NCBI GenBank assembly: GCA_035540375.1
Contig: DATLGO010000048.1
Location: forward strand, 27,772-91,771
Length of the DNA: 64,000 nt
Direction: 5' to 3'
DNA from: Thermoplasmatota archaeon
GTDB lineage: Archaea; Thermoplasmatota; SW-10-69-26; JACQPN01; JAJPHT01
Each line of letters begins with the position of its first letter. Position 1 is the stretch's first letter. This document shows positions 4,801 to 64,000 of this stretch, one piece after another. The translations under genes were made by a program, and so were the position numbers. The notes under the pieces were generated by a model that saw only the letters and a program-made list of their open reading frames with translations, was not told the origin of the DNA and made no database searches.

Positions 4801-5451
4801 GGCAAGCACTTTCAGCCCACCCCCTCCCTCGAAGCTATCGCGGCGGCGCGCCTCGTCGGGGTTGGAGATGCACCCCTTGGACCTCCTCCTCTGCGAAACC
4901 GGGTCCCGTTGCTCCGACTGTCACTGGTGGACCGCGCGCGGCTGCTCGCTCTTGGCGCGCCTCGACGCGGCCACCGAACAGCTCACCGCCGCCGCGCGCC
5001 CGACCCGCGCGGCGCCCATCCCTGTCATGCCGGCGGCCACGGCCGTCGCCTGACCCGCATCCCCGACACGAACCCGGAAGGCGCGCTCCGCCCCCGTCCG
5101 TACGATGGATGGGAGGGCATCCCTAAGGCTGTGCTTCCAACCGCGCCTTCCGGGGTTCGTCGTGTCGACGCGCGGCTCGTTCGTCACACCCCCTCGAGCA
5201 GAGGCGGCGAGCCGGATATGCGTCCGACGCCGTTCGAGACGATCTTCCATCTGGGGCTTTGCAAAGCACATGGGGACGTGGACGTCGATGGAAACGAAAG
5301 AGCCATCTCTGAAATCCCATGAAACAGCGTTTACGCTCCCGCGGGGAGAGGACGAACCAGAGATCGTATGGCCGATCATCAGTCCACAGGCGTCGTTTCC
5401 ATCACGTGTCGCCGAGGAGCGGTCGCTAGAACAACCAAGGATGCCAATCCA

Positions 5452-6864
5452 TCAACGACAGTAGGGATGATCTCGATAACTTGGGAAGTCAGGTTGGGAT
5501 CTTCGTTGATTCGTGGACCAAATATCCTTAGGAACATCCAAGAATACGAATGAGCCGTCCCGGAGGTCCAGGATGACGATTCTTGCGCGAAGCGACCGGT
5601 TGTCGAGGAAAAACAGGGCGTACTCGTAATGATCCATGTAGACCTTTGGCTGCCGGCCGAAGGTCGTAATATTGGTGATCTGGGCGTCCCGCAAGTTCAT
5701 CATGATGGCGACGCGCTCTCGCGCGGCATCCAATGGGAGAATGAGGGAGTTGTCGGTGTCGCGGGGAGGCGCGCGCACCATGGGAGTCTTCGAGATAACC
5801 TTGAGCGTTTCGCGTTCACCCACGAGCGGGAGTGGGTTGTTTAGGATATCCTTCTGAACCTTGAATTCAAGGGCGGCCGTGGAGGCGGTCGACTGCAGCA
5901 AGATCGTCATGGTATAGGTCTCTCTGTCGACGTTTCCAACGACGCGGGAGCATCCCGCGTAAGCAAAGCGAGCCGATTGAATCGCCGCAGAGGGGTGCGC
6001 CCGCAGGAATCGCTCGACATCGCCGTCATGTTCGCGAGCCCATTCCAGGGCCTCCGCGATCCCGATCGGGCCCGGTTCTCCTTCGGGCAATTCTCGACCT
6101 CGCATGCGCGCCAGTTCTACTGGCGGCACCGCCCGGTGTTCATGGGCCGTGGAAATGATTCCGCCCTGCCCCCGCGCGTATTGTTGAAGCGTAAATTTGT
6201 AGGGGCCGCTTCGGATCGCGGTCGGAAATGGAACGCCATCACACAGGGTTACCGCGCCCTCTCGAATCAACCACGGAGAGATGCCGCTCGACCAGGTGGA
6301 TCCACCGCCCGTGGCCGGCGCCGAAACTTCGATCAACCGACAGCCGTGAGAACTCCCTGCAGGGGCCGGGATAGAACGATACCGAGGATCGAGGGCATTC
6401 AGAGCGGGCCCTGCGTCGCCGCGGAGGCGCCCGAAGAGGGGACCTACGCCGAGGAAGCTCGGCGTTCCCCGCATGCCGTAGTTTATGACCGTCCGCCCCG
6501 CTTCACACGTTTCCATGCTCTCTTCGTCGTATCGGCAGCCATAATCAACGGCGATGAGATTGCCTTCGCCATCGAGATATTCCGTGTGGTGAGGCGGAAA
6601 TCCGTGACCCTCAATTTCACCGTCGAACCCCACGTCGAGGCGATGCGCTTCCGCCTCCCGCCCAAACCGATCGAGGAAAGGCGACCTCGGGCCTACGGCC
6701 AACTTCAAGCTACCTTCAACAGGCCCGGTCACATTGAAAACTGCCCAGGATCCTTCCTCGAGAGCAGGCAGCGTCCACGCATCGGTCGCGGTGAAACAAC
6801 CGATGAAGGAAGGCGCGAGGACAACGATGGCCCACGCCGACCGTTGCTTCAACAGGCCCCCCAC
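5452..6864 (-). CDS. secreted hypothetical protein (N-terminal signal peptide)
   Basis: 470-aa ORF with an N-terminal hydrophobic signal (MGGLLKQRSAWAIVVLAPSFIGCFTA). It lies in a GC-poor (~50%) island and overlaps the upstream gene by 16 nt. Confidence 0.5.
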   Translation of the reverse strand: MGGLLKQRSAWAIVVLAPSFIGCFTATDAWTLPALEEGSWAVFNVTGPVEGSLKLAVGPRSPFLDRFGREAEAHRLDVGFDGEIEGHGFPPHHTEYLDGEGNLIAVDYGCRYDEESMETCEAGRTVINYGMRGTPSFLGVGPLFGRLRGDAGPALNALDPRYRSIPAPAGSSHGCRLIEVSAPATGGGSTWSSGISPWLIREGAVTLCDGVPFPTAIRSGPYKFTLQQYARGQGGIISTAHEHRAVPPVELARMRGRELPEGEPGPIGIAEALEWAREHDGDVERFLRAHPSAAIQSARFAYAGCSRVVGNVDRETYTMTILLQSTASTAALEFKVQKDILNNPLPLVGERETLKVISKTPMVRAPPRDTDNSLILPLDAARERVAIMMNLRDAQITNITTFGRQPKVYMDHYEYALFFLDNRSLRARIVILDLRDGSFVFLDVPKDIWSTNQRRSQPDFPSYRDHPYCR

Positions 6865-7382
6865 TCGGCAGGTTGGGAAACGGACTCCAGATCACCCCAC
6901 GAGGAGGCCGTTGCCTCCGCCATGGCGCACACCCATTCGATGTCCGGGGCGCCAATATACCCAACGAGAAGGCCGGCGCCGCAGGGATCTGCGCTTGCCG
7001 GCATGTTCGAACATGTGTCGGTGCGCGTCACCTCGGAAACCACGCCTCCCGTCATCTTGAACGTGGCCGTCAACACGGCACTCTCAACCGGCCCGGTCAC
7101 GGAAGCTGCGGCCTCGATTCGCCGCGACCCCCAGATGTTGATCCAGGTCTCTACGCAGATGGATAGGCCGCAGGAGGGCGGATTCGAGAAGCACTCCGTC
7201 GTCGGAACGTTCTCGGCGTTGCACCCGTAGCACGAGGGTCCCGTCTCATCCGCCGCGCAGGGTCCGCATCCGACCATGGCTTCGTTCTCGTCCACGTAGC
7301 AACTGTCGACGCCGGTCTCCGCACCTGTGGAAGGGAGATTGACCGCAAGTAGAACGAAGGCGATGAGCATCGGGGCTTTCAT
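6849..7382 (-). CDS. small Cys-rich secreted protein
   Basis: Signal peptide MKAPMLIAFVLLAVNLPSTGA, then about 16 Cys in ~165 aa (CYVDENEAMVGCGPCAADETGPSCYGCNAENVPTTECFSNPPSCGLSIC). Confidence 0.45.
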   Translation of the reverse strand: MKAPMLIAFVLLAVNLPSTGAETGVDSCYVDENEAMVGCGPCAADETGPSCYGCNAENVPTTECFSNPPSCGLSICVETWINIWGSRRIEAAASVTGPVESAVLTATFKMTGGVVSEVTRTDTCSNMPASADPCGAGLLVGYIGAPDIEWVCAMAEATASSWGDLESVSQPAEWGAC

Positions 7383-7437
7383 CACATCCGACAAGACCCC
7401 CCCCGCATCAATGTTGCGCGGGCCCGATCATGTCAGG

Positions 7438-18376: not shown

Positions 18377-18838
18377 ATGTGCCCCCTCGCCTGTCCGCCG
18401 GGCGTGAGCGCGTTCCGCCCCCGCTTCGAGTCGGGCCTCCTCGCGCCCGTCCTCGCCCATTTCGCGGCCGAAGGCTACACGCTCGCGACGGAGGTGCCCG
18501 TGAACGGCCGGCTCGCGGACGTCGTCGCGGCGCGCGCGGACGAGGTGGTGGCGGTCGAGCTCAAGCTCGACGACTGGCGCGGCGCCTTCCGGCAGGCGAC
18601 CGCCTACCAGGTGGGCGCCGACCGGGCCTTCGTCGCCCTTCCGCTGCTCGTCGCGGCGGGCGTCATGCACGCCCCCGTCTTCGACCAGGCGGGCGTCGGG
18701 CTTCTCGGCGTCAACCACCCGAAGGGCGACGTGCGCGTGCTCCTGCCCGCGCGACGCTCGGGCCGCCACCTGCCCTTCATGGCGGCGGCCCTGCGCGACG
18801 CGATCCTCGCGGGCGCGCCGCCGTCAGCGGACGCCTGA
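18377..18838 (+). CDS. hypothetical protein, possible PD-(D/E)xK nuclease-like fold
   Basis: RLADVVAARADEVVAVELKLDDW gives a D...E-x-K arrangement. The call is weak and the start is uncertain. Confidence 0.35.
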   Translation: MCPLACPPGVSAFRPRFESGLLAPVLAHFAAEGYTLATEVPVNGRLADVVAARADEVVAVELKLDDWRGAFRQATAYQVGADRAFVALPLLVAAGVMHAPVFDQAGVGLLGVNHPKGDVRVLLPARRSGRHLPFMAAALRDAILAGAPPSADA

Positions 18839-19285: not shown

Positions 19286-19657
19286 TTGCGGCCGCCTCGT
19301 CGCTGGGCTTTTCTGGCCGTCCGCCTTCCCGCCTGCGTGAAGCGCGTCCTTGCCTACGTTCCCGACCTGCTCTTCCGATCGCGCGTGCGCGGCACGGCCT
19401 CGGCCGCGGGCGTCGAGGTCGTGTTCGCGTCGAACGGGCCGGACCTCGCCGCGAAGGCGGCCTCGGGCGGCTTCGACCTCGCGCTCGTGGACCTCCACGC
19501 GCCCGGCGCCCTCGCGCATCTGCCGCGCGGCGTGCGCGTCGTCGGCTTCCACAGCCACGTGGACGTCGCGACGCGACGCGCGGCCGAGGCTGCGGGCGCG
19601 GAAGCGTACACGAACTCCGCCTTCGTCGAGGCCCTGCCGAAGATCCTTCAGGCGTGA
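19286..19657 (+). CDS. stand-alone CheY-like receiver (REC) domain protein, atypical
   Basis: RVLAYVPDLL...GVEVVFASNGPDLAAKAASGGFDLALVDLHAPGALAHL...VRVVGFHSHVD...AGAEAYTNSAFVEALPKIL follows REC topology. The phospho-acceptor Asp context (LALVDL) is present, but the N-terminal acidic pair and the conserved Lys are degenerate. The likely start is GTG near 19340. Confidence 0.4.
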   Translation: MRPPRRWAFLAVRLPACVKRVLAYVPDLLFRSRVRGTASAAGVEVVFASNGPDLAAKAASGGFDLALVDLHAPGALAHLPRGVRVVGFHSHVDVATRRAAEAAGAEAYTNSAFVEALPKILQA

Positions 19658-19724: not shown

Positions 19725-21167
19725 ATGCCCAAGGTCCGACTCCCCACGCCCCTTCGCCCGTACGCCGGCCACCAGGCCGTCGTCGAGGTCGAAGGCGCGA
19801 ACGTCGGCGAGGTCCTCCGCCGCCTCGTCGCGAAGCACGAAGGCCTGCGCGGGCACCTCTTCGACGAGCGTGGACGGCTGCGTCCGTTCGTGAACGTGTA
19901 CGTCAACCAGGAGGACGTGCGCACGCGCCAGAACGACGCGACCCCCGTCGCCGACGGGGACGTCGTCATGATCGTGCCCGCGGTCGCGGGCGGCGCAGTC
20001 CCCGCGAAGGGCGCGGGCGGCGTCGGGATCCTCGGCCGCGACGAGACGGCCTACTACGCGCGTCACCTCATCCTCCCCGAGGTCGGCCTCAAGGGACAGG
20101 AGAAGCTCAAGCGCGCGAAGGTGCTCCTCGTCGGCACGGGCGGCCTCGGCGCGCCGGCCGCGCTCTACCTCGCGGCCGCGGGCGTGGGCCGCATCGGCCT
20201 CGTCGACTTCGACCGCGTCGAGGCCTCGAACCTGCACCGGCAGGTGCTCTTCTCGGCCTCGGACGTCGGACGACCGAAGGCGGAGGCGGCGGCCGCGCGC
20301 CTGCGCTCGCTCAACCCCCACATCGAGGTGGACGTCCACGACACGACCTTCACGAGCGCGAACGCGCTCGACCTCCTCGCCGGCTACGACATCCTCGTGG
20401 ACGGCACGGACAATTTCCCGACGCGCTACCTCGCGAACGATGCCGCGGTCCTCTCGGGCAAGCCGAACGTCTACGCGAGCATCTTCCGCTTCGAAGGCCA
20501 GGCGTCCGTGTTCGCGACGCGAGACGGACCCTGCTACCGGTGCCTCTACCCCGCGCCGCCGCCGCCCGGCCTCGTGCCGAGCTGCGCCGAAGGCGGCGTC
20601 CTCGGTCTCCTCCCCGGCGTCATGGGCACGATCCAGGGCGTCGAGACCGTGAAGCAGATCCTCGGCATCGGCGAGTCGCTCGCGGGGCGCCTCCTGCTCT
20701 TCGACGCGCTCGGGATGGAATTCACGACGCTCTCGCTGCGCAAGAACCCCGACTGCCCCGCGTGCGGCGCGAAGCCCACGCTCACGGGCCTCATCGACTA
20801 CGAGGAATTCTGCGGCGTCCGCGCCCACGAGGACGCGATTCCCTCGGGCGTGCCCGCGATCGCGCCGCGCGACGTCCACGCGCGCCGCGAGGCGAAGGCC
20901 GACCTCACGCTCGTGGACGTCCGCGAGCCGCACGAATGGGAGATCGGGCGCATCGCGGGCGCGATGCACGTGCCGCTCGGCGAGGTCGTCGCCCGCGCTT
21001 CCGAGATCCCGCAGACGGGCGAGGTCGTGGTCTACTGCCGCTCGGGCGCGCGCAGCGCCCGCGCGACGGAGACGCTGCGGGGCCTCGGCTTCCGCAACGT
21101 CAAGAACCTCGAAGGCGGCATCCTCGCCTGGGCCCGCGACGTCGACCCCACCGTCGCGACGATCTGA
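19725..21167 (+). CDS. fused MoaD/ThiS-like Ubl (ending in GG) + MoeB/ThiF-type E1 adenylyltransferase + C-terminal rhodanese domain
   Basis: Residues 1-90 (MPKVRLPTPLRPYAGHQAVVEVEGANVGEVLRRL...VNVYVNQEDVRTRQNDATPVADGDVVMIVPAVAGG) are the MoaD/SAMP beta-grasp with a terminal Gly-Gly. They continue in frame into the E1 (KVLLVGTGGLGAPAALYLAAAGVGRIGLVDFDRVEASNLHRQ, CxxC...CxxC) and a rhodanese domain (VVVYCRSGARSA active-site Cys). A GGAGG RBS precedes the ATG. Confidence 0.85.
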   Translation: MPKVRLPTPLRPYAGHQAVVEVEGANVGEVLRRLVAKHEGLRGHLFDERGRLRPFVNVYVNQEDVRTRQNDATPVADGDVVMIVPAVAGGAVPAKGAGGVGILGRDETAYYARHLILPEVGLKGQEKLKRAKVLLVGTGGLGAPAALYLAAAGVGRIGLVDFDRVEASNLHRQVLFSASDVGRPKAEAAAARLRSLNPHIEVDVHDTTFTSANALDLLAGYDILVDGTDNFPTRYLANDAAVLSGKPNVYASIFRFEGQASVFATRDGPCYRCLYPAPPPPGLVPSCAEGGVLGLLPGVMGTIQGVETVKQILGIGESLAGRLLLFDALGMEFTTLSLRKNPDCPACGAKPTLTGLIDYEEFCGVRAHEDAIPSGVPAIAPRDVHARREAKADLTLVDVREPHEWEIGRIAGAMHVPLGEVVARASEIPQTGEVVVYCRSGARSARATETLRGLGFRNVKNLEGGILAWARDVDPTVATI

Positions 21168-21174
21168 GGCGCGC

Positions 21175-21534
21175 ATGGCCGATTGGGTGCGCATCCCGGA
21201 CGGCGCGCGGCTCGGGGAAGGCGACCGCCTCGTCGCCGAGGCCGCGGGACGCCGTCTCGCCCTCGCGCGGGCGGGCGGGAAGCTCCGCGCCTTCGACGAG
21301 CGGTGCCCCCACCGGGGCGGCCCTCTTTCGGAAGGGACGCTCGCGGGGCGCCTCCTCACGTGCCCCTGGCACGCGTGGACCTTCGATCTCGAGACGGGCG
21401 CGCACGTCGTCAACCCCGACGCCGGGGTCGGCCTCCACGCGGTGCGCGAGGACGGTCCCGACGCCCTCGTCGCGCTCGAGGCCTCGCCGCCCCCCCACGG
21501 GCCGTATTATCGCGGGACCCTGCCGGGCCCATGA
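21175..21534 (+). CDS. Rieske [2Fe-2S] domain protein (NirD-like small subunit type)
   Basis: CPHRGGPLSEGTL...CPWHAWTFDLETG carries the CxH...CxxH Rieske ligands. It starts 8 nt after the E1-fusion stop. Confidence 0.75.
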   Translation: MADWVRIPDGARLGEGDRLVAEAAGRRLALARAGGKLRAFDERCPHRGGPLSEGTLAGRLLTCPWHAWTFDLETGAHVVNPDAGVGLHAVREDGPDALVALEASPPPHGPYYRGTLPGP

Positions 21535-45768: not shown

Positions 45769-45800
45769 TCTGGGCGGTCTAACCGCCGCCGAGGACGATC

Positions 45801-46553
45801 ATGGACAACGAGCGCGATCTGACGGTCCACGAGTTCCAGGAGGTCGACCTCCGCGGCGCGACGATCATCGACGGGTTCCCGAGCGTCGGCCTCGTGAGCA
45901 CGATCACCGCGAACTACCTCATCGACGTGCTCGAGCTCGAGCAGATCGGGATCATGGATTCGAAGTGGTTCCCGACGGTCTCCATCGTCCGCAATGGCGT
46001 TCCCCTGTACCCCGTGCGCATCTACGCGGGGAAGGGCGTGTGCGTCTTCATCTCCGAGTTCCAGCCGGCCCCCAAGCTCATCCGGCCCATCGCCGAGGCC
46101 ATCATGCAGTTCGCGCTCGCGAAGGGCGCGAAGACCGTCATCTCGCCCGAGGGGCTCGTCATCGATTCCGAAGGCGAGAAGGCGGAGGACGAAGTCGGGG
46201 TCTACGCGCTCGGGTCCACCGAGGAGACGCGGGCGATGCTGCAGAAGCACGGTCTCGAGCAGTTCGGCAACGGCATCATCACGGGCGTCTCGGGCGTCCT
46301 GCTGAACCTCGGGAAGAAGGAGGGCTTCAACGCCATCTCCATCCTCGCCGAAGCGAACCCGAACTACCCCGACGCGCGCGCCGCCGCGAAGGTGATCGAG
46401 GTCATCAACGGCCTCCTCGACCAGGTCGACATCGACGTGAAGCCGCTCTACAGCGAGGCGGAGAATATCGAGCGGACCCTCCGCATGATGCAGAAGCAGG
46501 CCGCCCCCGCCGCCGCGCCGGACCGCGACTCGGTCCCGCCGATGTACGGCTGA
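45801..46553 (+). CDS. proteasome assembly chaperone PAC2-family protein (archaeal)
   Basis: ATIIDGFPSVGLVSTITANYLIDVLELEQIGIMDSKWFP is the PAC2 N-terminal signature. Confidence 0.7.
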   Translation: MDNERDLTVHEFQEVDLRGATIIDGFPSVGLVSTITANYLIDVLELEQIGIMDSKWFPTVSIVRNGVPLYPVRIYAGKGVCVFISEFQPAPKLIRPIAEAIMQFALAKGAKTVISPEGLVIDSEGEKAEDEVGVYALGSTEETRAMLQKHGLEQFGNGIITGVSGVLLNLGKKEGFNAISILAEANPNYPDARAAAKVIEVINGLLDQVDIDVKPLYSEAENIERTLRMMQKQAAPAAAPDRDSVPPMYG

Positions 46554-49712: not shown

Positions 49713-50387
49713 CTACGCCGCGCGCCGCGTCTTCAAGGCGAGGTACCCGAGCGACGCGAGCGTCGTGAGGCCGACGAGGACGGCGGCCCCGTGGAGGCTG
49801 CGGGCCTCGACGCTCGCCCCGAGGACGGGGTGGAGGAGGCCGAAGATCGTCGGTCCCATGAGGACCGCGACGAGCACGATCGCGGCCGCGATCGCAAGAA
49901 GCCTCAGCTGACCCGCCCGGACCGCGGAAGCCGCGGCATCGAGGCGCGCGATCGTGCCGGGGGGCGCGGCCGCGGCGACGTGGAGGAACTTCGCGGCGAG
50001 GGTCGCGTTCTCGACGAAGACGACGAACCCGAGCCCGCCGGCGAGCGCGATCACCCATTCGAGGAGGGACGGAAACGCGGTCGCGACGGGGAGCGCGACG
50101 AGGATCGCGAGAAGGCCTCCCGCGGCCGTCTGGAGGTAGGCGAGGCGTTCGCCGCGACCCTCCGGGTCGTTCTCGACGTTGAAGCGCGAGGCCCGCACGA
50201 GCCCGTGCCGCGCGATCGCGGTGGCCGCGAGGCCCGCGGCGAGGGTGAGCGCCGGAATCTCGACGACGCCGAGGAACGGACGGTCGCCGAGGAGGGCGAG
50301 GCCGCCCGTCGCGAGGGCCGTCGTCGCGAGGCCCGCGGTCGCCATCGCGATGCTCGATCGGGCGCCGCGGCCGATGTCGCGCGTCAA
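49713..50387 (-). CDS. polytopic membrane protein, last gene of the MoxR operon
   Basis: 224 aa with at least five hydrophobic helices. The start overlaps the DUF58 stop by 4 nt (ATGA). Confidence 0.5.
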   Translation of the reverse strand: MTRDIGRGARSSIAMATAGLATTALATGGLALLGDRPFLGVVEIPALTLAAGLAATAIARHGLVRASRFNVENDPEGRGERLAYLQTAAGGLLAILVALPVATAFPSLLEWVIALAGGLGFVVFVENATLAAKFLHVAAAAPPGTIARLDAAASAVRAGQLRLLAIAAAIVLVAVLMGPTIFGLLHPVLGASVEARSLHGAAVLVGLTTLASLGYLALKTRRAA

Positions 50388-51640
50388 AGCAGCGCCTCCC
50401 GGGCGAAGGTGACGGTGATCGGCTCGGCGGTGTCCCAGTCGACGACCACGGCGCCGTAGGACTTCATCTGGGCGATGGCCGTCTCGCGCTCGAGCATCGC
50501 GGTCTCGTACTCGGCCGTGCCGGGCGCGATGCCCGCCTTCTCGAGGAAGGCGCCCGCGCGCGGGGTGACCACGAGGACGCGCATCTCGTAGGCGCGCAGG
50601 GCGCGAACGGCCTCGCTCGCGGTGCCGTCGTCGAGGAGGTTCGAGATGAGGATGATGGGGCTTCGCGGCTTCAGCATCGGGAGGATCTGTCCCACGGCCT
50701 CGAGGGCCTTCATCGCGCCCTTGCCGTCGGCGTCCGCGAGGGCCTCCGAGAGCGGGATGATGGGCTTCTCGGTGCCGGTGAGGCGGACCTCGCGGATCGC
50801 GTCCTCGTAGAAGATGAGCCGCATCTTGTCCCGGCGCTTGAGGAGGAAGCCCGCGAGCGAGACCGCGGCGCGCGATCCGTACACGATGGCGTTGTCGCGC
50901 ACGGTGCCGAGGCGCGCGATCTCGCGGTTGTCGAAGAGGATCGTGACGCGGGCCTGCGTCTCGCGCTCCGTCTGGTTGACGATGAAGTTCTTGCTGCGCG
51001 CGCTCGCCTTCCAGTTGATCGATCGGTAAGGGTCGCCCGTCATGTATTCGCGCAACGCGAAGAACGACGAGCCGTAGCCGGGTTGGCCGACGATGTAGTC
51101 GCCCGCGACGACGAGCGGGAACTTGCTCTTCGTGAGCGCGTCCCGCAGGTCGAATTGGCGCGGGTAGATCGTGAGGAACGTCACGCGGTCCACGTCGTTG
51201 TCCTCGTGGAAGAGCCCGAACGCGTCCTGCACGCGGAGCCGCACCGGCCCGAGCGAGAACTTCCCCTTGATGGGCGCGCGGAGCACGTAGTCCATCTCAA
51301 GCGGCTCCGCCGAGAGCGCGGTGAGGACGTAGTTCGAGCCGCCCGCGATCTCGAGACCGGGCGGGAGGGTGTCGCGGATCTCCGCGAACACCCTTCCGCG
51401 AAGGCCCTTGGCCTCGACGCGGAGCCGCGTCTTGACCTCGGCGCCCTCGTGGCCGACCTGGCTCGAGGTCTCGCGCGTGGCGCGGATGTCGACGGACTTC
51501 ACCGTGAAGGCTGCGGCGGCGAGGAGGGCGAGGCCCGCGAGGCCCGCCGATCCGACGACCGGCGCGTCGAACACGAGGCCGACCGAGACGAGCAGTCCCG
51601 ATCCGGCCGCGGTGAGCGCGCCCTTCAGGGTGAGCTTCAT
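50384..51640 (-). CDS. DUF58-family protein (MoxR partner), two N-terminal TM helices
   Basis: GDYIVGQPGYGSSFFALREYMTGDPYRSINWKASARS is the hallmark DUF58 motif. Confidence 0.85.
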   Translation of the reverse strand: MKLTLKGALTAAGSGLLVSVGLVFDAPVVGSAGLAGLALLAAAAFTVKSVDIRATRETSSQVGHEGAEVKTRLRVEAKGLRGRVFAEIRDTLPPGLEIAGGSNYVLTALSAEPLEMDYVLRAPIKGKFSLGPVRLRVQDAFGLFHEDNDVDRVTFLTIYPRQFDLRDALTKSKFPLVVAGDYIVGQPGYGSSFFALREYMTGDPYRSINWKASARSKNFIVNQTERETQARVTILFDNREIARLGTVRDNAIVYGSRAAVSLAGFLLKRRDKMRLIFYEDAIREVRLTGTEKPIIPLSEALADADGKGAMKALEAVGQILPMLKPRSPIILISNLLDDGTASEAVRALRAYEMRVLVVTPRAGAFLEKAGIAPGTAEYETAMLERETAIAQMKSYGAVVVDWDTAEPITVTFAREALL

Positions 51641-51647
51641 CGACGTC

Positions 51648-52667
51648 TCACACGGTGGGAACCGGCGCCTCGCGGACGATCTCGTTCACGACGTCGTGGT
51701 TCTTGACGCCCCGGATCTTCGATTCGGGCCGCAGGATGATGCGGTGGGCGAGGATGTGGGGCGCGACGAACTTGACATCGTCGGGGACGACGAAGTCGCG
51801 GCCCGACATGGCGGCCTTGCTGCGGCAGGCCTTGAGGAGCGCCTGCGAGCCGCGCGGCGAGGAGCCGACGTAGATGTCGGGGTGGCCGCGCGTGCGGACG
51901 ACGAGGTCGGCGATGTAGTCGATCATCTCGTCCGAGATGTAGATCGTCTCGATCGTCTGCTGCATCGCGATGACCTGCTGGGGGTTCGTGACGGCGGACA
52001 CGTCGACGTCGTCCTTCGCCCGACGGATGCGGCGGCGCAGGATCTCGGCCTCGTCGGCCTTCGCGGGGTACCCGACGCTGAGCTTCATGAGGAAGCGGTC
52101 CATCTGGGCTTCGGGCAGCGGGTAGGTACCTTCCTGCTCGACCGGGTTCTGCGTCGCCATGACGAGGTACGGCTTGTCGAGCTTGAGCGTCGCGCCTTCG
52201 ACCGTGACCTGGCGCTCCTGCATGGCCTCGAGGAGAGCCGATTGGGTCTTGGGCGGGGCGCGGTTGATCTCGTCCGCGAGCAGGATGTTGGTGAAGACCG
52301 GGCCCGGGCGGAAGTTGAACTCGCTCGACTGCTGGTTGTAGACGTACGTGCCCGTGATGTCGCCGGGAAGCACGTCGGGCGTGAACTGGATGCGGCGGAA
52401 GTCGCAGCCGGCCGCGCGCGCGAACGTGTTCGCCATGAGCGTCTTCGCCATGCCGGGAAAGTCCTCGAAGAGGATGTTGCCCGACGAGAGGATGTTGATC
52501 GTGACGAGCTCCAGCACCTCGCGCTTGCCGACGATGACCTTCGCCACCTCGTCGATGAGGCGCTTCGTCGTGTCGGCGAGCCGGACGACGTTCGGGTTCG
52601 GGGGGCGCTGCGGGCGCGCCTGGGCGAACGTCTTCGCTGCCTGGGGTTTCGTGGCCATGATTATCAC
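51648..52667 (-). CDS. MoxR-family AAA+ ATPase
   Basis: ILFEDFPGMAKTLMANTFARA (Walker A variant, AAA_3), LLADEINRAPPKTQSALLEAMQERQVT (Walker B and sensor), 339 aa. Confidence 0.93.
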   Translation of the reverse strand: MIIMATKPQAAKTFAQARPQRPPNPNVVRLADTTKRLIDEVAKVIVGKREVLELVTINILSSGNILFEDFPGMAKTLMANTFARAAGCDFRRIQFTPDVLPGDITGTYVYNQQSSEFNFRPGPVFTNILLADEINRAPPKTQSALLEAMQERQVTVEGATLKLDKPYLVMATQNPVEQEGTYPLPEAQMDRFLMKLSVGYPAKADEAEILRRRIRRAKDDVDVSAVTNPQQVIAMQQTIETIYISDEMIDYIADLVVRTRGHPDIYVGSSPRGSQALLKACRSKAAMSGRDFVVPDDVKFVAPHILAHRIILRPESKIRGVKNHDVVNEIVREAPVPTV

Positions 52668-53890
52668 CTGCTGCCTTTGCCGTAGTTCCGGATCCTTGTC
52701 AGGAGATCCTTGAGGGTATCGTCATCGCTTGCGCCGTTTTCGCCGCGCACGACGCGACGCAACCGGTCGTCGGTCGCGAGGACCGCGAGCGTTTCGGGGG
52801 CGGGCGACTCCTCGCGCACGCCGTGGACGGCCCGCACGCGCTCGCGCGCGAGGCGCGTAATGCGCTCGATCGGGCTCGCCATGGGGGAGGTCCGGACGCG
52901 GGCGAGGCCGCTCCGGTGGTGCGTGAGCCGCTCCTCGGGTTTGACGAGGGCGAGGAGCACCGCGATCGCGAGGCCGAGGGAACCGAGGAAGATCCACTGC
53001 CAGAACGGGTCCTTCGTCGGCACGACGAGCGACGCGAGGCCCGCCGCGGCGAGCCGGGCCTGGGGCGCGGGCGCGTGACGCGATTCGTCGAAGAGGATGG
53101 TTCCGGCGTTCGACCCGCGGGCGAGCGCGTCGGGGAGGGCGAGGGCAAACTTGCGGTTGTCGCTCCCTGCGGCGTCGAGCATCTCGTTCGTGAAGAGGGC
53201 GGGGTCCGCGATGAACATGACGGTGCCGCGGCCGTGCGCGACGACGACCATCTGGGGGAAGGGACCCTTCGTGTCCGTGTCGTCCTTGCGGCGGTTCCCG
53301 TCGTTGTCGAGGTACGAGTCCGGCGAGCTCGTCGCGACGATCCGGGCCGAGGGGTTCGCGCCGGAAAGAAGGCTCGGGCTCACGGTGAGGGCCGTGGGCT
53401 CGTTGAGAAGGAGGTCGAAGGTCAGGTCCTCGCCCTTGCTCGTCGTGAGGAGCGCGCGGGCGCGGGCGAGCGAGACGTTCTTCTGGAAGTTGGAGTCGAG
53501 GAGCGGCACCTTGTCGAAGGTGACGCCGAACTTGACGGCGAGCGTGTTCGCGAAGCCGAAGTCGTCCGCGACCACGAGGACGCCGCCGCGCGTCACGAAG
53601 TCGTCGAACGCCTCGATCTCGGAGGCCGAGTACGGCCGGCTCACGCCGACCGCGAACACGATGTGGGCCGCGGGATCGGAGACGCCGCGCAGCACGAGCG
53701 GCGTCGAGGCGATGGTGTCCGTGTTGTACCCGAGGCCCCCCGCGAGGCTCGCGCGGTACGCGCCGAGATCCGCGCGGCCCGAGCTGTAGGATCCGAGCTC
53801 CGGGGGCGGGGAATAGAGGATCGCGACGACGGCGCCCCCGACAATGAGGGCGGCAAGGAGGACGGCCGCGAGGCCGAGCGCGCGCTTCAC
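52664..53890 (-). CDS. DUF4350-like protein (N-terminal and C-terminal TM helices flanking a large extracytoplasmic domain)
   Basis: The GTG start (VKRALGLAAVLLAALIVGG) overlaps the stop of the giant upstream gene (GTGA). C-terminal TM FWQWIFLGSLGLAIAVLLALV. The stop overlaps the MoxR start (GTGA). The 5' 2.4 kb of the track ORF 52664..56311 overlaps the giant gene out of frame and is rejected. Confidence 0.6.
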   Translation of the reverse strand: MKRALGLAAVLLAALIVGGAVVAILYSPPPELGSYSSGRADLGAYRASLAGGLGYNTDTIASTPLVLRGVSDPAAHIVFAVGVSRPYSASEIEAFDDFVTRGGVLVVADDFGFANTLAVKFGVTFDKVPLLDSNFQKNVSLARARALLTTSKGEDLTFDLLLNEPTALTVSPSLLSGANPSARIVATSSPDSYLDNDGNRRKDDTDTKGPFPQMVVVAHGRGTVMFIADPALFTNEMLDAAGSDNRKFALALPDALARGSNAGTILFDESRHAPAPQARLAAAGLASLVVPTKDPFWQWIFLGSLGLAIAVLLALVKPEERLTHHRSGLARVRTSPMASPIERITRLARERVRAVHGVREESPAPETLAVLATDDRLRRVVRGENGASDDDTLKDLLTRIRNYGKGSR

Positions 53891-56800
53891 GCGCCCGCCT
53901 CCTTCGCGCCGCCCTTCGTGCGCCGGATGCGCGCGAGGTCGGCGTTGAGCGCGGCGAGCGCGCTCAGGGCGCGGTCGCGCTCGGCGGGCCCGACGCCGTG
54001 GGCGGAGTACCGCGCCTCCTCGAAGAGCGAGACGAGCGCGTCGAGCGGCGCCGCGCGCACCGGGAGAGCCGCCTTGACGGCGGCGCCGAACTCCTGCGCC
54101 GTGACGTCCGGCGTCGTCGTGTACCCGAATTTCACGAGGTAGTCGCGCAGGCGCCGGTAGGCCATGAGAATGGTGGCCGAGTACTCGTCGCCCGCGACGA
54201 GCGCGGCCTGCGTGTCGAGGAGGATGCGCTCGGCCTCGGTGACGCGGCTCTTCCTGTACCAGGCGACGAGGAGGCTCACGATGGCCGCGACCGCGAGAGC
54301 GCCGATGAGCGCGAGGACCCACGAGTTGCCGGCGCCGCCGAAGGCGCCCGTGGAGATCTGGATGCGGGTCGCCTCGTTCGTGGGCAGCAGGTCGTCGGTC
54401 CCGCCGAAGCGCACGTCGAGGTCCGAGGCGCCCGCTCCGGTGACCTTCCCCGGGAAGGAGGCGTGGCCGGTCGCGTTCGTCTTCAGCGTGAACGGGTAGT
54501 ACGAGCCGCTGAAGTGGACGCGGAGCACGGCGTTCGGGACGCCGAGCCCCTCGTCGTCGAGGAGCTGGACGGTGCCCGTGAAGCTGTCGCCCACCGCGAG
54601 CTTGCGGGGGACCACGACCTCGAGCCGGGTCATGCTGATGACCTCGACGAGCGCGATCGCCGAGGCGGGCGTGTGGCTCTGGTCGCCCGCGTAACGGACC
54701 TCGATCGGGACCCGGGCGCGCTCGAAGTCGGCCGGGATGAGGGCCGCGACGTGGAAGCTCCCGTTCGGGGCCGTGCTCGCGCGCGCGAGGAAGGAGCCGT
54801 TGAAGATGAGCTCCACGGAGGCGCCGGGGACGCCGAGGCCGTTCTCCTGCTTGAGGCGGCCGTCGAACTCGAAGACCTGGCCGCGCACGGCGCGCGGGGG
54901 CGGGTGGATCTCGAGCACGGTGCGCGAGAGCAGGCGCAGCGACCCGGTCGCCCCCGAGGGCGCGTAGAGCGTGGAGCCCTCGTAGCGCGCCTCGATCGGG
55001 TAGACCTTCGCGGCGACCCCGGAGGTGTCGAAGCCGGCCTCGGCCTCGCCGCGGAAGTCGGTCGGAGTGACCGTCACGGGCGATCCGAGGAAGGTGACGC
55101 CGACGATCTCGCCGCCGATGGGCCGGCCGGCGTCGTCGTGGAGCGTGAAGTTGTACACGACCTCGCCGATCGCGGCGGTGAGGTGGGGCATGCGAATCGA
55201 GGTCGCGCTCAGGACGCGCACCGTCGAGACGAGCTCCGGCGCCCCGCGCAGGAGGCCGTCCGCGCTCCCGTCGTAGCGGGCGCGCGCGAGGACGGGGCCG
55301 AGGCTCGCGTTCGCGGGGAGCGTGAGGGGCGCGCGGAATCCTCCGGTCGCGTTCGTCACGAAGACGCCGAGATGGCGCTCGCCGAGCGTCACGTTCACGC
55401 TTTCGCCGCGGACGGGCCGCTCGTAGGCGTCGACGACGACCCCGACGAGCGCCTGCGGAACGCCGCGCACGAGGGCCTTCGTCTCGAGGCTCACGCGCGT
55501 CGCGGACGTCGCCGGAACGCGGATCGAGGTCGAGGCGGGCCCGTAGAAGTCGGATCCCGCGAATCCGAGCGCGAACGTCACGCTCCCGACCTTGGGATAG
55601 ACGTTCCTCGGGATGGTGAGCGAGAAGGTTCCCGTCGCGTTGTCCACGCGCGCCTGGGTCGCGTAACCCTCCGTCGAGATGCGGATGACGAGCGCGTCGC
55701 GCGAGGTGGGGTCGCGCGCGGGGCCGCCGCCCACGTCCCGGAGGGTCCCCTGGATGACCGCGTCCTTCGCGATGTCGAGCGCCGTGACGCGGATGAGGTC
55801 GGCCCCGAGGGGCTGGAGGATCTGCGCCTCGAGGACGGGCCGGGCCCGGATGGTGACGAAGCTGAGCTTCTGCGAGGAGGCCTGGTAGAGGTCGGATCCC
55901 TCGAAGACGAGGGAAACGGGCTGGTTGCCAGGACTCGAGTCCTCGGGGATGAGGATCTTGAAGGACGCGACACCCTGCGCGTTTGTAACCGCCGTGTGGA
56001 GCGCTCCGAGGAAATGGAGACCGACGGTCTCGTTGCCGACGACCGCCCCCCGGAAGTTCCTGAGGGTCGCCTCGGCGACGAGATCGCCTCCCGCAACCGC
56101 GATGAGACGATCGTTCAGCACGCGGCCGGAGATCTTCGTGGGGAACGCGATCGCGACGCGGGCCTTCCCCGTCGAGGCGCCGTAGAGCTCCGATGGCGTG
56201 GTCTCGAGCGGGAGGTCGAAGTAGCCCGGCTCCTGGGCGGCGCCGGTCGGGAAGCTGATGTTGAACCGCCCCTCCGCGTCCGTGGTCGCGCTCTTGCGGA
56301 CGCCGTTCCACGTCATGAGCACCGGCCTCCGCGGCGCGGGGTCACCCGACCCGTCGAGGAGGCGCGCGGTGCCCCCGATCTCGCCGTTCGGCGTCGTGCG
56401 GAGCGTGGGTCCGGCGTCGAACGTGGTCGGCGTGCGCAGGCGGAGCGTCTGTGTTGCCACCACGGGCGTCTCGAACGTGCCGCGGATGCCCCGGGCCCGG
56501 TAGACGGTGGAGCCCGCGCCGTCGACGACGTCGGCGGCGGTCCACTCCGCGTGGGCGCCGATGCCGTAGCTCCAGAGAAGGACGCGGTAGCTCGTGATCG
56601 CTGGATCGAGCGCGACGGAGGCCGTGTCGAGGGTCCAGCTCACCGTGGATCCCGGAGCGTGGACCTTGCCGAAGAGCACCACCGGGCCGCAGCTCGAGGG
56701 AATGGTGACGGATTGCGCGCGCACGAGCGAAAGCGTGAGCGAGAAGCGGCCGGCGGCGTCCGTGAACGCCACGCCCGCGACGCGGGACGGGTCGCTGCGG

Positions 56801-59800
56801 GCCCTCAGGTTGTCCTTCGAGGCGTCGTTCCAGGCGAGGTTCGCGAGGATGGGGACGCAGGCGCGGTTGACCCAGTTGCGCGTCGAGGCCGCCGGGGCGA
56901 GCGTCCCGTCGACCGCAAGCGAGCCCCCCTTGAGCAGGATGTCGTCCTGACCGGAGTGGTGCGTCACGACGAGGTCCTGGATCACGACGTCCGCAAGCGC
57001 TTCCCAGATCGGGCACGTGTCGCCGGGAAGTCGGGTCGAGGCCACGCTGAGGCGGCCTTCGCGCATCACCCAGGCGTTCCGGAAGGCGGGGTCCGCGGGG
57101 TCCGCCTCGCCCGTGTTCATCTGGTCGTAGAACGGGTGCGGATCCTCGCCGACGAAGTCGTTCAGCCCGTCCTTGTCGTAGTCGAAGTTGTTGCCGAGGA
57201 TCTTGCCCGTGATCGGGTCGATGAAGCCGTCCTTGAAGGGCGGTCCCGCCTTGCACGAGCGCGTCGCGATGTTCGTGTCCGTGCGGTTGCCCGCGGCGCC
57301 GAACCACCAGGTGCCGGTCCACGACGGCGGGCGGCCGATGTCGTACCGCTGGCCTTCGGACAGGTCGCCGAAGCGCGAGACCGTGCGGGTGTCCTGGAGC
57401 GGGTCGTACCCGTAGAGCTGCTCCCACCCGTCGGGGATCCCGTCGTCGTCCGAATCCTCGTCCGTGGGGGAGGTTCCGACGGCGCACGTTCCCCCGTCGG
57501 GGCATCGCTCGCCGTAGAAGATGTATCCGCCCGGAATGCGCGTGTGCACGATGCCCGCGGCGATGAGCGCTTCGACGTGCTCCGCAAGGTCCGGCTTCGA
57601 GAGCGTCGCTTCGCACGTCGCGGGGAGGGCGCCGCCCGCAAGCTGCGCCTGCCAGTTCGGGCCGTCGAGGAGGCCGTCGCCGTCGGTGTCGAAGGCGACG
57701 ACGCTCGTCGGGGGATTGAGCGCGAGCTCGTCGGCGGCGCTGAGGCCGTCGCAGTCCGCGTCGGAGGCGCCGAGGTCGTCGAGCGGGTTCAGCGGATTGG
57801 ATCCCGCGAGCTTCCCTTCCTCGGTGACCTCCTTGCCGTCGCCGAGGCCGCCGAAGTCGCTGTCGGGATTGAGGGGATCGGTCGGGCCCGGCATGCCGGG
57901 CTCGAAGGAGACCTTCCACTCGTTGACGTTCGAAAGCCCGTCGCCGTCGCAGTCCGATTTCCCGCCGAGGGGGTTGCGCGGCTCGAAGAGGCTCACGCAG
58001 GAGACGTAGGCGGGGCTCGCCGAGGCGAGCCGGCGCGTGCGCGCCTCCCACCAGTCCGGCATCCCGTCGCCGTCGGTGTCCGGCACGAGCGGGTCCGTGC
58101 GGTTCTCGTACATCTCGCGCCAGGTCCAGCGGAACGGGCCCTGGATGATGTAGACCGTGAATTCCTCGGCGCGGCCCTGGGCCTTCACGCGGTGGTACCC
58201 GTTCGTCGGGGCGAGGAGGGTCTCCGAGGGCGCAAGCGTCGCGGGCGTGCCCTCGGGGACGCCGAGGGTGCGCACGTACGTGGTCTCGAACCCGGTGGCG
58301 TTCACGTCGCCGGGCTTGAGCGGGTCCATGCAGCCGCACGGCGACGCGACGCCGGGGGCGTGCGAGCCGACGCGGGAGAAGTAGTATTCCCACCCGTCGG
58401 GAACGCCGTCGCCGTCCGAGTCCGCGCGGTGGGGATCGGTCTTGAGCGCGTACTCGTCGAGGTTCGTGAACGCGAACTGGAACGGGAACAGGGTGCCGAC
58501 GCGGTGGTCCACGCCGTCGCCGTCGAGGTCGCGCGTCGTGTCGGAGAGCCCGTCCTTGAGGCACGACCCGAGGCTGTCGACCCGCGTCGGATCGAGGTCC
58601 CACGCGAAGCACGCGTGGACGTACCAGGCGTGGCGGATCTCCCAGCCGTCGTCGAGCGAGTCCCCGTCCGTGTCGAAGAGGGCGGGATCGGAGGCGGGGA
58701 AGGGGTACGCGTCGAGCGCCCCCGGGGCCGCGAGGCGGCGCTCGGGCTTGAGCTCGGCCCCGTCGTTCACGCCGTCGCCGTCGGCATCCGCGTTCACGAC
58801 GTTCGGGGCGTCCTGCCAGCGGCCGCAGCCTTCGCCGAGGCGTCCCTGGGGCAGGAGCGCCTCGCGGGCCTGCTGGAGCGACCACGTCTCGCCCTTGCAG
58901 CGGCGGTGCTGGTCGATGATGCGGTTCAGCTCCTCGGGCGTCGCCTGCTGGGAGCGGGTCGTCCAGTACTCGACCTCGGCGCCGTCGAGGATCCCGTCGC
59001 GATCCGTGTCGGACTCGACGGGGCTGAGCGGCGGGGACACGGCGAAGGCGACCTCGTCGAGATCGTCGATGCCGTCGAGGTCCGTGTCGGGCGTGAGGGG
59101 ATCGAGCGCGCACGGGACGCCCGCCTTGGCGGCCGTGTCGTAGCAGAAGTCGACGCGGCGGCCCGCGATGACCGAGAAACCCTGACGCTTCTCGAAGTCG
59201 GTGAAACCCGAGTTGGCGCTGTCCGCGCGGGCGGGATTGCTCCACACGTGCGTCGTGCGACCGTCGACCGTGACCGACCAACCGAGGACGACCTCCTCGA
59301 AGTCGTTGAGGCCGTCGCCGTCCGTGTCGCGCCGCCGCGGATCGGCGCCCGAGAGCGCCTCCTCGAGGTTCGTGAGGCCGTCGCCGTCGGGGTCCGTGAG
59401 CGGCCCCACGACGAAGGCGGGAAGCGAGGCGCGCGAGAGCCACGCGGGGAGCGAGATGTGGGTGAGGAGCGCCGCGCGCACGCCGCCGCCGTCCGCCGCC
59501 GAGAGCGGGTCGAGCCCGTGCGCGACCTCCCACGCGTCCGACATGCCGTCGCCGTCGGAGTCCGCCCGCGTCGGGGAAAGCCCGCGCGCGAAGAGGGGCG
59601 CGAGCTCGTCGCCCGAGAGGTTCGCGTAATTGAAGCGGGCCGCGGTCCAGCGGAACTTCTCGAGCACCGTCATGCCGGTCCCGTCGAGGCTCCGGTAGGC
59701 GAGGCCCGGGTCGAGGGCGTCGAGCTTCCAGTGGAGGAGCCAGCCGTCCGCGATGCCCGCGCCGCTCGTCGAGTATCGCGTCGCGTTCGTGCGCGTCTCC

Positions 59801-63400: not shown

Positions 63401-64000
63401 TCGGGATGTTCACGGGCGTTTCCTTCGGAACGCGGTTCGACCACCTCGGGCCGCTCTGCGATACTCGAGCGTCGAAGATGCGCACCTCCGTGGGGCCGTC
63501 GAGCGCGACGATGTACATGGGGGTCGGCGACGTGTCGCTCTGGGGCGCGGACGCGGGAAGGAAGTGGAAGCGGCGACCGACGATGCCCCCGTCGACGGCG
63601 GGGACGACCGTCGCGGTGGGATAGAACGTCCCGACCGTCTCGGGCGGGTTGGGCCGGTAGAGGTAGTCCTGCCTCAGCGAGACCGTGACGGGCTTCGACG
63701 CGACGACCTTGAAGTAGAAATCCTGGTCGCCGTTCACGACGGTGACGGTGAGGGGCGTCGCCTGGAAATGGTCGCCCTCGATCACGATCCCGCCGTCGCG
63801 CATCTTCGTCTTCTCGTTGCCGGGGATGCAGGGCGGATTGTTCCGCGCCTCGCCGCAAAGCGGGATCGGATCGGGCTCGAAGTTCTCGAGCCGGTAGCGA
63901 TAGAGCCTGACGGTCGTGTTCGGGAAGTGCGGCATGACGTCGAGCACGGCCGGCGCGCCGGCTTCCGCGCCGTTCGCGGGAGCCCACCCGTAGAAGGTGG
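60462..64000 (-). CDS. giant surface protein with a CARDB/DUF11-type domain array and PGF-CTERM-like C-terminal anchor, 5'-truncated by the window edge
   Basis: Repeated CARDB-like units (FTVLVKNTGTGADNVTLSV; VKVDAKANRFAVGETVLFEITVLNNGTVPASRVEVALVADGQV). C-terminus ...GAFTPVPAFAIVVAALGAALLLRRRVAP. The stop overlaps the next start (ATGA). The reading frame stays open upstream to the window edge (no in-frame stop 63948-64000). Confidence 0.75.
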   Translation of the reverse strand, partial: TFYGWAPANGAEAGAPAVLDVMPHFPNTTVRLYRYRLENFEPDPIPLCGEARNNPPCIPGNEKTKMRDGGIVIEGDHFQATPLTVTVVNGDQDFYFKVVASKPVTVSLRQDYLYRPNPPETVGTFYPTATVVPAVDGGIVGRRFHFLPASAPQSDTSPTPMYIVALDGPTEVRIFDARVSQSGPRWSNRVPKETPVNIPSATLVGSDGSPMRIEAEGRIMVFTTGANDNYLYQMPSKHGAPAGTQVYGAFARSFVTTAYAPTEFIGTRMVSPTCDQLTTPPQLGRIPYCDGTLTIKPHAVRSNVQSQNTHNDRAEPWTFYAVEGGPISVASGRRGYMAAGGLDGGRVFEVRIPSTGSNSLPGWMNIFPVHNNTVVTVKEETLLANGTTQFTTRLTRTLNQNDYVWRQNNQPIFRSGAKDAFFRVEASKPVLVNVYTPGSQLYGTFYQGTLAPVKIEVGIVNFYGNLVAWKERTLSGTFKPGDTAKFTLTAVNLGRGLGNTSITDDFEIDQDFQGSTQKWRVTVSTAIERSIPTGGTRDVTVAIRIDPSVKTGEQITFNLTLTSGANPRIQDTARVTVSVQTRYDFQMSFVGRVAQAKTSFASLQSAGTHEFTVLVKNTGTGADNVTLSVSPGGPGGFPFTAEIVDAAGRRIADSSGLKGRVALPEKGETEVKLRVRAPRNDLPLQWEFVVQGASVADASTQDQVTATVSINIRTDLRVDAENSTFRVTPGTTTHLPIKVTNLGSDTEVVLGVVSPAAPDWTYAIEPSRVTLRGQGDSRVVNLSVLPGPSARVGQVLPFQVKATALTEEADGGLKENATRVTAIVVNNFTLVVPTPLPRSLDPGAKVSFDFEIASRANGAMRVSLVPSALPPGWSFAEVNPPGTFDLLPGEARAVSVVVAAKPNEDPGEFAIGVGFLLSDAEGSRHLFEKVVAARVKRFFDYEAIVESDGFVRPGGKTRVALAVTNTGNGPEEIVLETVPPPGWTMRFERPDDRIVRLEPGQSTRVAFEVTAPRNATSDSARLEVRGVINQERERVTPIDLVIERLDLSVVKVDAKANRFAVGETVLFEITVLNNGTVPASRVEVALVADGQVVKNATLESLAPNEARKIQLPWNVIRASTFEIAIDPSNRFHEENRANNALKYDLSARSSGAFTPVPAFAIVVAALGAALLLRRRVAP

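Follow-up and report, generated by a model that had tools for sequence, protein, structure and literature searches.

A CysO-type ubiquitin-like carrier fused to a MoeZ-type E1–rhodanese in a Thermoplasmatota archaeon: a probable precursor for release by a JAMM protease

The 64,000-nt stretch of DNA analyzed here, hereafter the window (positions 27,772–91,771 of contig DATLGO010000048.1, assembly GCA_035540375.1, from a Thermoplasmatota archaeon), carries on its plus strand a gene (19725–21167; 480 aa) that encodes a CysO-type ubiquitin-like (Ubl) domain, a MoeZ-type E1 and a rhodanese within one polypeptide. In our assessment this gene probably encodes a CysO–MoeZ precursor: a Ubl carrier translated together with its own E1–rhodanese and released by a protease of the JAMM family. 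An earlier note on this DNA had proposed either that the fusion is a pro-protein requiring cleavage by a JAMM/MPN+ protease or that the Ubl acts in cis. The first of these options is favored because a JAMM gene adjoins the fusion gene in 73 of 76 loci, the Ala-Gly-Gly that ends the Ubl is invariant and is followed by a variable linker, split and free forms of the Ubl occur, and a spare Ubl was found in just 1 of 84 loci.

The open reading frame (ORF) runs uninterrupted from an ATG at 19725, with a GGAGG about 12 nt 5′ of it, to a stop codon at 21165–21167. Domain parsing with Pfam, which the earlier note had recommended, recovers in order ThiS (PF02597; residues 4–90, E 8.7e-16), ThiF (PF00899; residues 111–346, E 7.9e-82), and Rhodanese (PF00581; residues 383–471, E 7.8e-20). 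There is no stop between the domains, and the in-frame Ubl(GG)–E1–rhodanese fusion described in that note stands. The Ubl domain (residues 1–90; 19725–19994, plus strand), assigned from Pfam, a match to solved structures in the PDB, and AlphaFold2, is a ThiS/MoaD-type, CysO-like beta-grasp. Its C-terminal sequence, VMIVPAVAGG, ends in A88-G89-G90, from which the reading frame continues into the E1. The Gly89-Gly90 codons lie at 19989–19994 (plus strand), and the invariance of these residues and the split variants described below point to a predicted JAMM cut directly after Gly90. The linker that follows, AVPAKGAGGVGI (residues 91–102; 19995–20030, plus strand), is unconserved in the family comparison and predicted to be disordered from the AlphaFold2 local distance difference test scores (pLDDT). 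A linker of 20 aa had been reported, which is correct if one counts to the Pfam boundary of the E1; the unconserved, disordered part extends over only about 12 residues.

The E1 adenylation domain (residues 103–366; 20031–20822, plus strand), assigned from the ThiF match, Foldseek, and its invariant residues, comprises an N-terminal helix with R113, a GxGxxG nucleotide site, two zinc CxxC pairs, and Cys287 (codon 20583–20585) in the crossover loop. The rhodanese domain (residues 383–471; 20871–21137, plus strand; Pfam Rhodanese) contains the active-site loop C438-R-S-G-A-R443 within the motif YCRSGARS, the Cys438 codon being 21036–21038. Among 118 homologs, C270/C273, C344/C347, C287, and C438 are all present and invariant, so that both CxxC pairs and the active rhodanese cysteine are as first described; G137, G139, G140, R113, D163, R172, and K185 of the E1 and G441, R443, and S444 of the rhodanese are likewise invariant. 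An AlphaFold2 model built from the 118-sequence alignment has a mean pLDDT of 88.3 and a predicted template modeling score of 0.78. Residues 1–85 adopt beta-grasp secondary structure at pLDDT 90–95, which, with the Pfam ThiS match, answers the question of whether the fold is present, whereas residues 88–100, comprising the GG and the linker, fall below 50 and are predicted to be disordered. Foldseek comparison with ThiF and MoeB gave template modeling (TM) scores of 0.94–0.95, normalized to the target, and the best solved full-length structural match is Uba4 (6yub_A, E 3.7e-36).

A fusion of this kind could in principle be an artefact of assembly or sequencing, produced by a lost stop codon or a frameshift between an ordinary moaD and an ordinary moeB; indels are possible in high-GC metagenome assemblies, and a few relatives are genuinely split. 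However, an identical 480-aa protein, flanked by the same neighbors, is encoded on five contigs from independent ENA and Logan assemblies, in each of which the ORF is intact rather than split by the frameshift or stop that the earlier note had suggested looking for. A fragment from JGI (P0001; 350 aa, without the rhodanese) is also 100% identical. The five contigs and the JGI fragment therefore rule out a frameshift or mis-assembly. The three-domain architecture is, moreover, common to the best 120 homologs, which derive from many assemblies, and 76 of 80 genome loci are fused in frame; the probability that we attach to an artefact is negligible.

At the junction between carrier and E1, A88-G89-G90 is invariant in the 118 sequences, while the residue after it is variable (S in 48, A in 35, V in 9, R in 7, and others in the remainder). 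Across the family, the linker after the GG ranges from 1 to 55 residues (median 12), is rich in A, P, G, and T, and is unconserved. In the fusion protein 390 residues follow G90, and the GG is thus internal to the translated protein. Self-cleavage at the GG-X bond, either intein-like or through an N-to-S acyl shift, was considered and rejected: the variable residue after the GG provides no conserved nucleophile, which disfavors such a route.

Four loci contain natural split versions, in which a Ubl ORF is followed by a separate E1–rhodanese gene (L037, 10001–11575; L028, 10001–11563; L070, 9282–10889; L046, 10001–11578). The split Ubl ORFs end in AGGR, AGGV, or AGGAA before the stop codon, that is, one or two residues past the GG, except in L046, where 33 residues follow; the separate E1–rhodanese gene begins approximately 100–180 nt after the Ubl ORF. 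These four loci stem from at least two independent fissions. The 150 nearest Ubl representatives also include free forms. Of the 150, 21 are standalone proteins that extend 1–5 residues past the GG and 9 stop at it exactly, while 75 have unclassifiable tails, dominated by contig-truncated fragments, and the fused and free counts are accordingly qualitative only. By analogy with QbsE and CxnE, the standalone Ubls with 1–5 residues past the GG would be classic precursor forms trimmed by a JAMM protease. One further representative, P0246 (190 aa), is a tandem di-Ubl comprising two CysO-like domains, with AGG at residues 91 and 188, and looks like a poly-Ubl precursor; a second AGG motif is also present in P0251 and P0352. 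An extra free Ubl was found in only 1 of 84 loci (L077), and the fused domain must therefore be the working carrier.

Neighboring ORFs were clustered around 81 loci, with the window checked separately, and the counts of upstream JAMM and cysM genes refer to the 76 loci with enough upstream sequence. In 73 of the 76, the fusion gene is directly preceded by a JAMM gene on the same strand; in 69, both a JAMM gene and a CysM-type gene lie upstream; and in 3, neither is present. The partner JAMM protein is approximately 145 aa long with the motif HSHPDHPxxPSxxD, and the partner CysM is a CysM-type pyridoxal phosphate (PLP) enzyme (TIGR01138, 315.8 bits; E. coli CysM, 1.7e-65). Profile and PDB searches bear out both identities. 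The link is reciprocal, since searches that start from the JAMM homologs return operons composed of PALP, JAB, and fusion genes. One such operon, in a Thermoplasmata metagenome-assembled genome (GCA_036395115.1; L089/L090, 1–8055), lies directly downstream of a SufBD–NifU–SufBD–cysteine desulfurase–NifU series, an arrangement that ties the PALP–JAB–fusion system to Fe-S and sulfur mobilization. At two other loci (L087, 6001–6788; L088, 1343–2130), with no E1 nearby, the gene for a standalone ThiS of 102 aa overlaps a JAB gene; the length of this ThiS suggests that extra residues follow its GG.

These data also bear on the second option of the earlier note, that the Ubl is never released and acts in cis as a docking, dimerization, or autoinhibitory module of the E1. 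A precedent may be seen in the Campylobacter-type Ubl–ThiF fusions, which occur beside a solo ThiS in a thiamine operon and for which Iyer, Burroughs and Aravind, in the passages concerned, inferred another role for the fused Ubl (PMC1779556); they are, however, a different family, one that keeps its solo ThiS. The fusions studied here present another picture, with a solo Ubl only at L077 among 84 loci and no thiamine genes among the conserved neighbors of the 81 loci. Action in cis would be compatible with linkers of only one or two residues in some homologs, and with the lack of a JAMM gene both in the window and near its closest relatives, L081 and L082. Adenylation, however, needs a free carboxylate, as is established for E1 chemistry. 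Nor would an internal docking domain need the AGG that is invariant here, and the split orthologs show that the Ubl works as a free protein. The rarity of a separate Ubl, the JAMM gene that adjoins the fusion in 73 of 76 genomes, and the variable residue after the GG (S, A, V, R, T, N, and others), which offers no conserved nucleophile for self-cleavage either, likewise argue against a purely cis role, and we regard it as very unlikely.

Turning to the type of carrier, the best solved relative of the Ubl domain is M. tuberculosis CysO (3dwg_C, E 2.5e-18), to which it aligns end to end, and both proteins finish in PAVAGG. The domain is also near an Amycolatopsis sulfur carrier in the PDB comparison, whereas MoaD structures match at E 1e-10 or weaker and SAMP1 structures at only about 6e-5. 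We therefore class the Ubl, on sequence comparison, as a bona fide ThiS/CysO-type domain that appears CysO-like rather than MoaD/SAMP-like. The designation "MoaD/SAMP-like beta-grasp" used in the earlier note was right as to a complete beta-grasp and needs revision as to its closest kin.

This placement is relevant to the possibility that the protein is a MoaD–MoeB pair for molybdenum-cofactor (Moco) biosynthesis, still cleaved but with MoaE rather than CysM as the acceptor. Relatives are named "molybdopterin-synthase adenylyltransferase MoeB" in databases, and the NCBIfam MoeB model PRK08762 is barely passed (450.6 against a cut-off of 449), while a second MoeB model, PRK07411, is not reached (483 against 633). 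A survey of archaeal gene fusions places the fusion under Moco biosynthesis in its relevant passages (PMC11237513), mycobacterial MoeZR serves both MoaD and CysO (PMC3227635), and cysM is unlinked in the lineage of the window. On the other side, the Ubl is far nearer to CysO than to any MoaD structure, the conserved partners are CysM and JAMM, and the Moco genes moaA, moaC, moaE, and moeA were found neither among the conserved neighbors of the 81 loci nor among the Pfam-scanned genes of the window. We judge a dedicated role in Moco biosynthesis to be rather unlikely.

The archaeal host raises another possibility, namely that the released Ubl is a SAMP-like protein modifier, a sulfur donor for tRNA thiolation, or both, with the fused E1 working like UbaA. 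NCBI calls the archaeal relatives "ubiquitin-like small modifier protein 1", the SAMP1 model NF041918 is marginally passed (61 against 60), the host belongs to the Thermoplasmatota, and linkage to cysM has been lost in its subclade. However, the protein falls far short of the cut-off for the UbaA equivalog model (NF047750; 318.5 against 450), SAMP1 structures match far less well than CysO does, and the gene is apparently of bacterial origin, with 57–62% identity to Acidobacteriota proteins. No link to NcsA, MoaE, or the proteasome was seen beside the fusion gene. A SAMP-like function thus seems to us unlikely.

Among characterized systems, the closest parallel to the proposed CysO–MoeZ precursor is the CysO/CysM/Mec+ pathway of M. 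tuberculosis with MoeZR (Rv1335, Rv1336, Rv1334, and Rv3206c). The carrier is of the same type, MoeZR likewise joins an adenylation domain to a rhodanese, and most relatives of the window gene have a CysM-type synthase and a small JAMM protein in one operon. Sulfuration of CysO by MoeZR has been demonstrated experimentally (PMC3227635). In M. tuberculosis, however, the carrier and the E1 are encoded by separate, unlinked genes and CysO ends at the GG, whereas here they form one polypeptide; the CysM-type partners resemble E. coli CysM more closely than they do the O-phosphoserine enzyme of mycobacteria; and, unlike the mycobacterial gene set, the 64-kb window has neither cysM nor JAMM. The gene set also corresponds to operon type 4c of Iyer, Burroughs and Aravind (2006), which comprises ThiS/MoaD, an E1–rhodanese, a JAB protein, and cysteine synthase (PMC1779556). 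The phyla match as far as the relevant parts of that paper show, including the acidobacterium Solibacter; those parts do not name a covalent Ubl–E1–rhodanese fusion, although they do predict release of fused ThiS/MoaD domains by JAB proteins.

An internal Gly-Gly followed by further residues or by an enzyme is likewise found in MoaX (MoaD–MoaE) of M. tuberculosis, in the MoaD–MoaE/DRJAMM system of D. radiodurans, and in QbsE/QbsD and CxnE/CxnF. Activity of the MoaX, MoaD–MoaE, QbsE, and CxnE precursors requires proteolytic exposure of the GG: MoaX has to be cleaved after Gly82 (PMC4326299), DRJAMM cleaves MoaD–MoaE (PMC8832034), and QbsD and CxnF are proposed to trim the residues past the GG (PMC5925218). 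In those precursors the carrier is joined to its sulfur acceptor, MoaE, or bears a short tail, whereas here it is joined to the very E1 that activates it. The eukaryotic Uba4/MOCS3 shares the adenylation-plus-rhodanese layout and the conserved crossover-loop cysteine; unlike the present protein, Uba4 has no fused Ubl and acts on separate carriers, Urm1 and MOCS2A.

By reference to these systems, we infer the following route, from JAMM cleavage through thiocarboxylate chemistry to the acceptor step. A small JAMM/MPN+ metalloprotease, encoded immediately upstream in nearly all relatives though not in this window, would cut after Gly90. The freed carrier, now with a Gly-Gly end, would be adenylated by the E1 domain at the expense of ATP. 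A persulfide on rhodanese Cys438 would then attack the acyl-adenylate, and the product would be resolved to a C-terminal thiocarboxylate, probably with the aid of Cys287. Finally, the thiocarboxylate would hand its sulfide to an acceptor enzyme, which in most genomes would be the CysM-type cysteine synthase, a PLP enzyme, encoded beside the fusion; the JAMM protein would then act a second time and free the cysteine from the carrier, as happens in M. tuberculosis. In the lineage of the present archaeon, cysM and JAMM are no longer linked to the fusion gene, so either both partners are encoded elsewhere or the carrier now serves another sulfur acceptor. Possible outlets are cysteine synthesis with unlinked genes, Moco biosynthesis, tRNA thiolation, and SAMP-like conjugation.

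Several observations weigh against this assignment. For every member of the fused family, the cut after the GG is a prediction. The fusion protein reaches neither the MoeZ cut-off of NCBIfam (PRK07878; 464.6 against 647) nor that for UbaA. The similarity of the CysM partners is greater to the E. coli enzyme than to the mycobacterial CysM that is specific for O-phosphoserine, which makes the proposed chemistry of the acceptor step tentative. Searches of the 64-kb window with Mec-type JAMM and CysM queries (tblastn) gave no match, and neither JAMM nor CysM was found within 8–10 kb of the fusion gene in L081 and L082. Motif scans of all six frames of the window returned no strict JAMM match and one relaxed match, inside DnaJ, and the earlier note was thus correct in reporting no JAMM there; there is also no second Ubl anywhere in the window.

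In a rough neighbor-joining tree, the window groups with L082 and L081, and the sister group consists of L079, with both cysM and JAMM, and L083/84, with JAMM only. In L083/84, of which L083 is archaeal, the JAMM and fusion genes overlap at the start of the latter. Because the genes are unlinked in L081 and L082 and linked in the sister group, the loss of linkage looks derived in the Thermoplasmatota subclade made up of the window, L081, and L082. The invariant GG has been kept in the subclade despite the lost linkage. The system may have been repurposed in these three loci, a reading to which we allow only a slim chance. Either another protease would free the Ubl, or the Ubl would remain bound across the E1 dimer until a regulated cut; in both cases the carrier would supply a redox-linked or SAMP-like pathway in place of CysM-dependent cysteine synthesis.

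The fusion is real, but it is widespread and already cataloged, which the earlier note had missed. The best 120 protein-database matches share 57–66% identity over approximately 99% of the length and contain the same three domains, the JGI fragment being the exception. Relatives are confirmed in at least 596 species genomes, of which 80 loci were kept for analysis; among the matches listed, these are mostly from Acidobacteriota and Gemmatimonadota, with Eisenbacteria, Chloroflexota, Bacteroidota, Thermoplasmata, and Nitrososphaerales also represented. The architecture of the window protein is exactly that of the moaD–moeBR fusion clusters 356.2 and 356.3 in the 2024 survey of archaeal gene fusion and fission in mSystems (PMC11237513). 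According to the relevant passages of that survey, these fusions occur mainly in unclassified Euryarchaeota and Poseidoniales and share more than 55% identity with proteins of Acidobacteria, and gene transfer between the two was proposed; from the similarity of the window protein to Acidobacteriota proteins, the fused gene does appear to have been acquired by archaea from bacteria. In contrast to the interpretation given here, the same passages file moaD–moeBR under Moco biosynthesis without connecting it to CysO, CysM, or JAMM, and they discuss a requirement for cleavage solely for MoaD–MoaE. What is added by the present analysis is the assignment to a CysO/CysM/JAMM system, quantitative gene-context and junction evidence for cleavage, and the loss of the linked partners in this archaeal subclade.

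The gene immediately downstream encodes a small Rieske [2Fe-2S] ferredoxin (21175–21534, plus strand; 119 aa; Pfam Rieske PF00355, E 5.9e-18) that starts 7 nt past the fusion stop codon and is probably co-transcribed with it. Its protein matches only generic dioxygenase-type Rieske ferredoxins, and of 84 other loci only two, L015 and L027, have a homolog downstream of the fusion, at distances of approximately 170 nt and 1.6 kb, respectively. The Rieske neighbor singled out in the earlier note is therefore present as described; as a conserved partner of the fusion family it was considered and rejected on this recurrence. A CDGSH 2Fe-2S protein is encoded immediately downstream of the fusion in four loci (for example, L003, 11543–11776), and an Rrf2/IscR-like regulator in 13 (for example, L067, 11591–12043). 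Together, small 2Fe-2S proteins of Rieske or CDGSH type lie downstream in about 7 of 85 loci, the window included, which hints, if weakly, at a redox partner, though not at a conserved one.

Upstream, an orphan CheY-like receiver-fold protein of 106 aa (19337–19657, plus strand; best start GTG at 19337) is encoded by an ORF that ends 67 nt before the fusion gene on the same strand. The atypical receiver gene previously noted at this position is borne out: its Response_reg matches are sub-threshold, and AlphaFold2 (pLDDT 95.6) and Foldseek (top matches CheY4 and PmrA receivers, TM about 0.8) support a CheY-like fold. Its family is small, with few database homologs, and keeps D10 and D52 invariant. 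L082 has a homolog within a few kilobases of the operon, as do the acidobacterial loci L002, L003, and L004, where it lies 2.4–4 kb upstream on the opposite strand. In L082 (3808–4116 and 3258–3641), the receiver-fold homolog is again paired with a homolog of an unannotated 153-aa ORF that lies at 18377–18838 in the window.

By Pfam, the rest of the window consists of ordinary archaeal housekeeping genes, with EMG1/Nep1, EF-1alpha, and PAC2 as archaeal markers; this annotation contains no Moco, tRNA-thiolation, or cysteine genes, and no RNA genes emerged when the window was scanned with Rfam and for tRNAs. The assignment to a Candidatus Thermoplasmatota archaeon is also supported by a protein encoded near the fusion that is 100% identical to NCBI VM889_05410. 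The PAC2 proteasome-assembly chaperone gene (45783–46553, plus strand) is approximately 25 kb from the Ubl–E1 gene and not adjacent to it; Makarova and Koonin reportedly described in 2010 an adjacency of ThiS and PAC2 in Thermoplasma. On the minus strand (50384–63998), genes for a MoxR AAA ATPase (51648–52721) and a DUF58 protein (50384–51685) adjoin those for two giant surface-type proteins. The first (53887–60480) has 2197 aa with TSP3, Big, and DUF4129 domains, and the second, which runs past the end of the window, has more than 1178 aa with CARDB and NPCBM_assoc domains. A stretch at 4921–7427, between an IF-2B-family gene and the DnaJ–DnaK–GrpE genes, has a lower GC content (about 0.66–0.67), and its ORFs have a lower GC content at third codon positions and no Pfam matches.

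The present results do not overturn current understanding: the operon type and the idea of cleavage date from 2006, and the fusion was cataloged in 2024, as the relevant passages of those papers show. The fused family would represent a very common, uncharacterized variant of the protein-thiocarboxylate route to cysteine, found in 596 or more species genomes, chiefly those of soil phyla (Acidobacteriota and Gemmatimonadota, for example), and apparently transferred into archaea. Its members carry database labels such as MoeB or SAMP1, whereas the context evidence points to a CysO–MoeZ precursor, and this difference matters for the reconstruction of sulfur assimilation in uncultured groups. With its carrier translated within its own E1, the family would also provide a clean natural test case for the gating of Ubl activation by JAMM proteases, and for how Ubl, E1, and deubiquitinase-like modules may have been wired together before eukaryotic ubiquitin.

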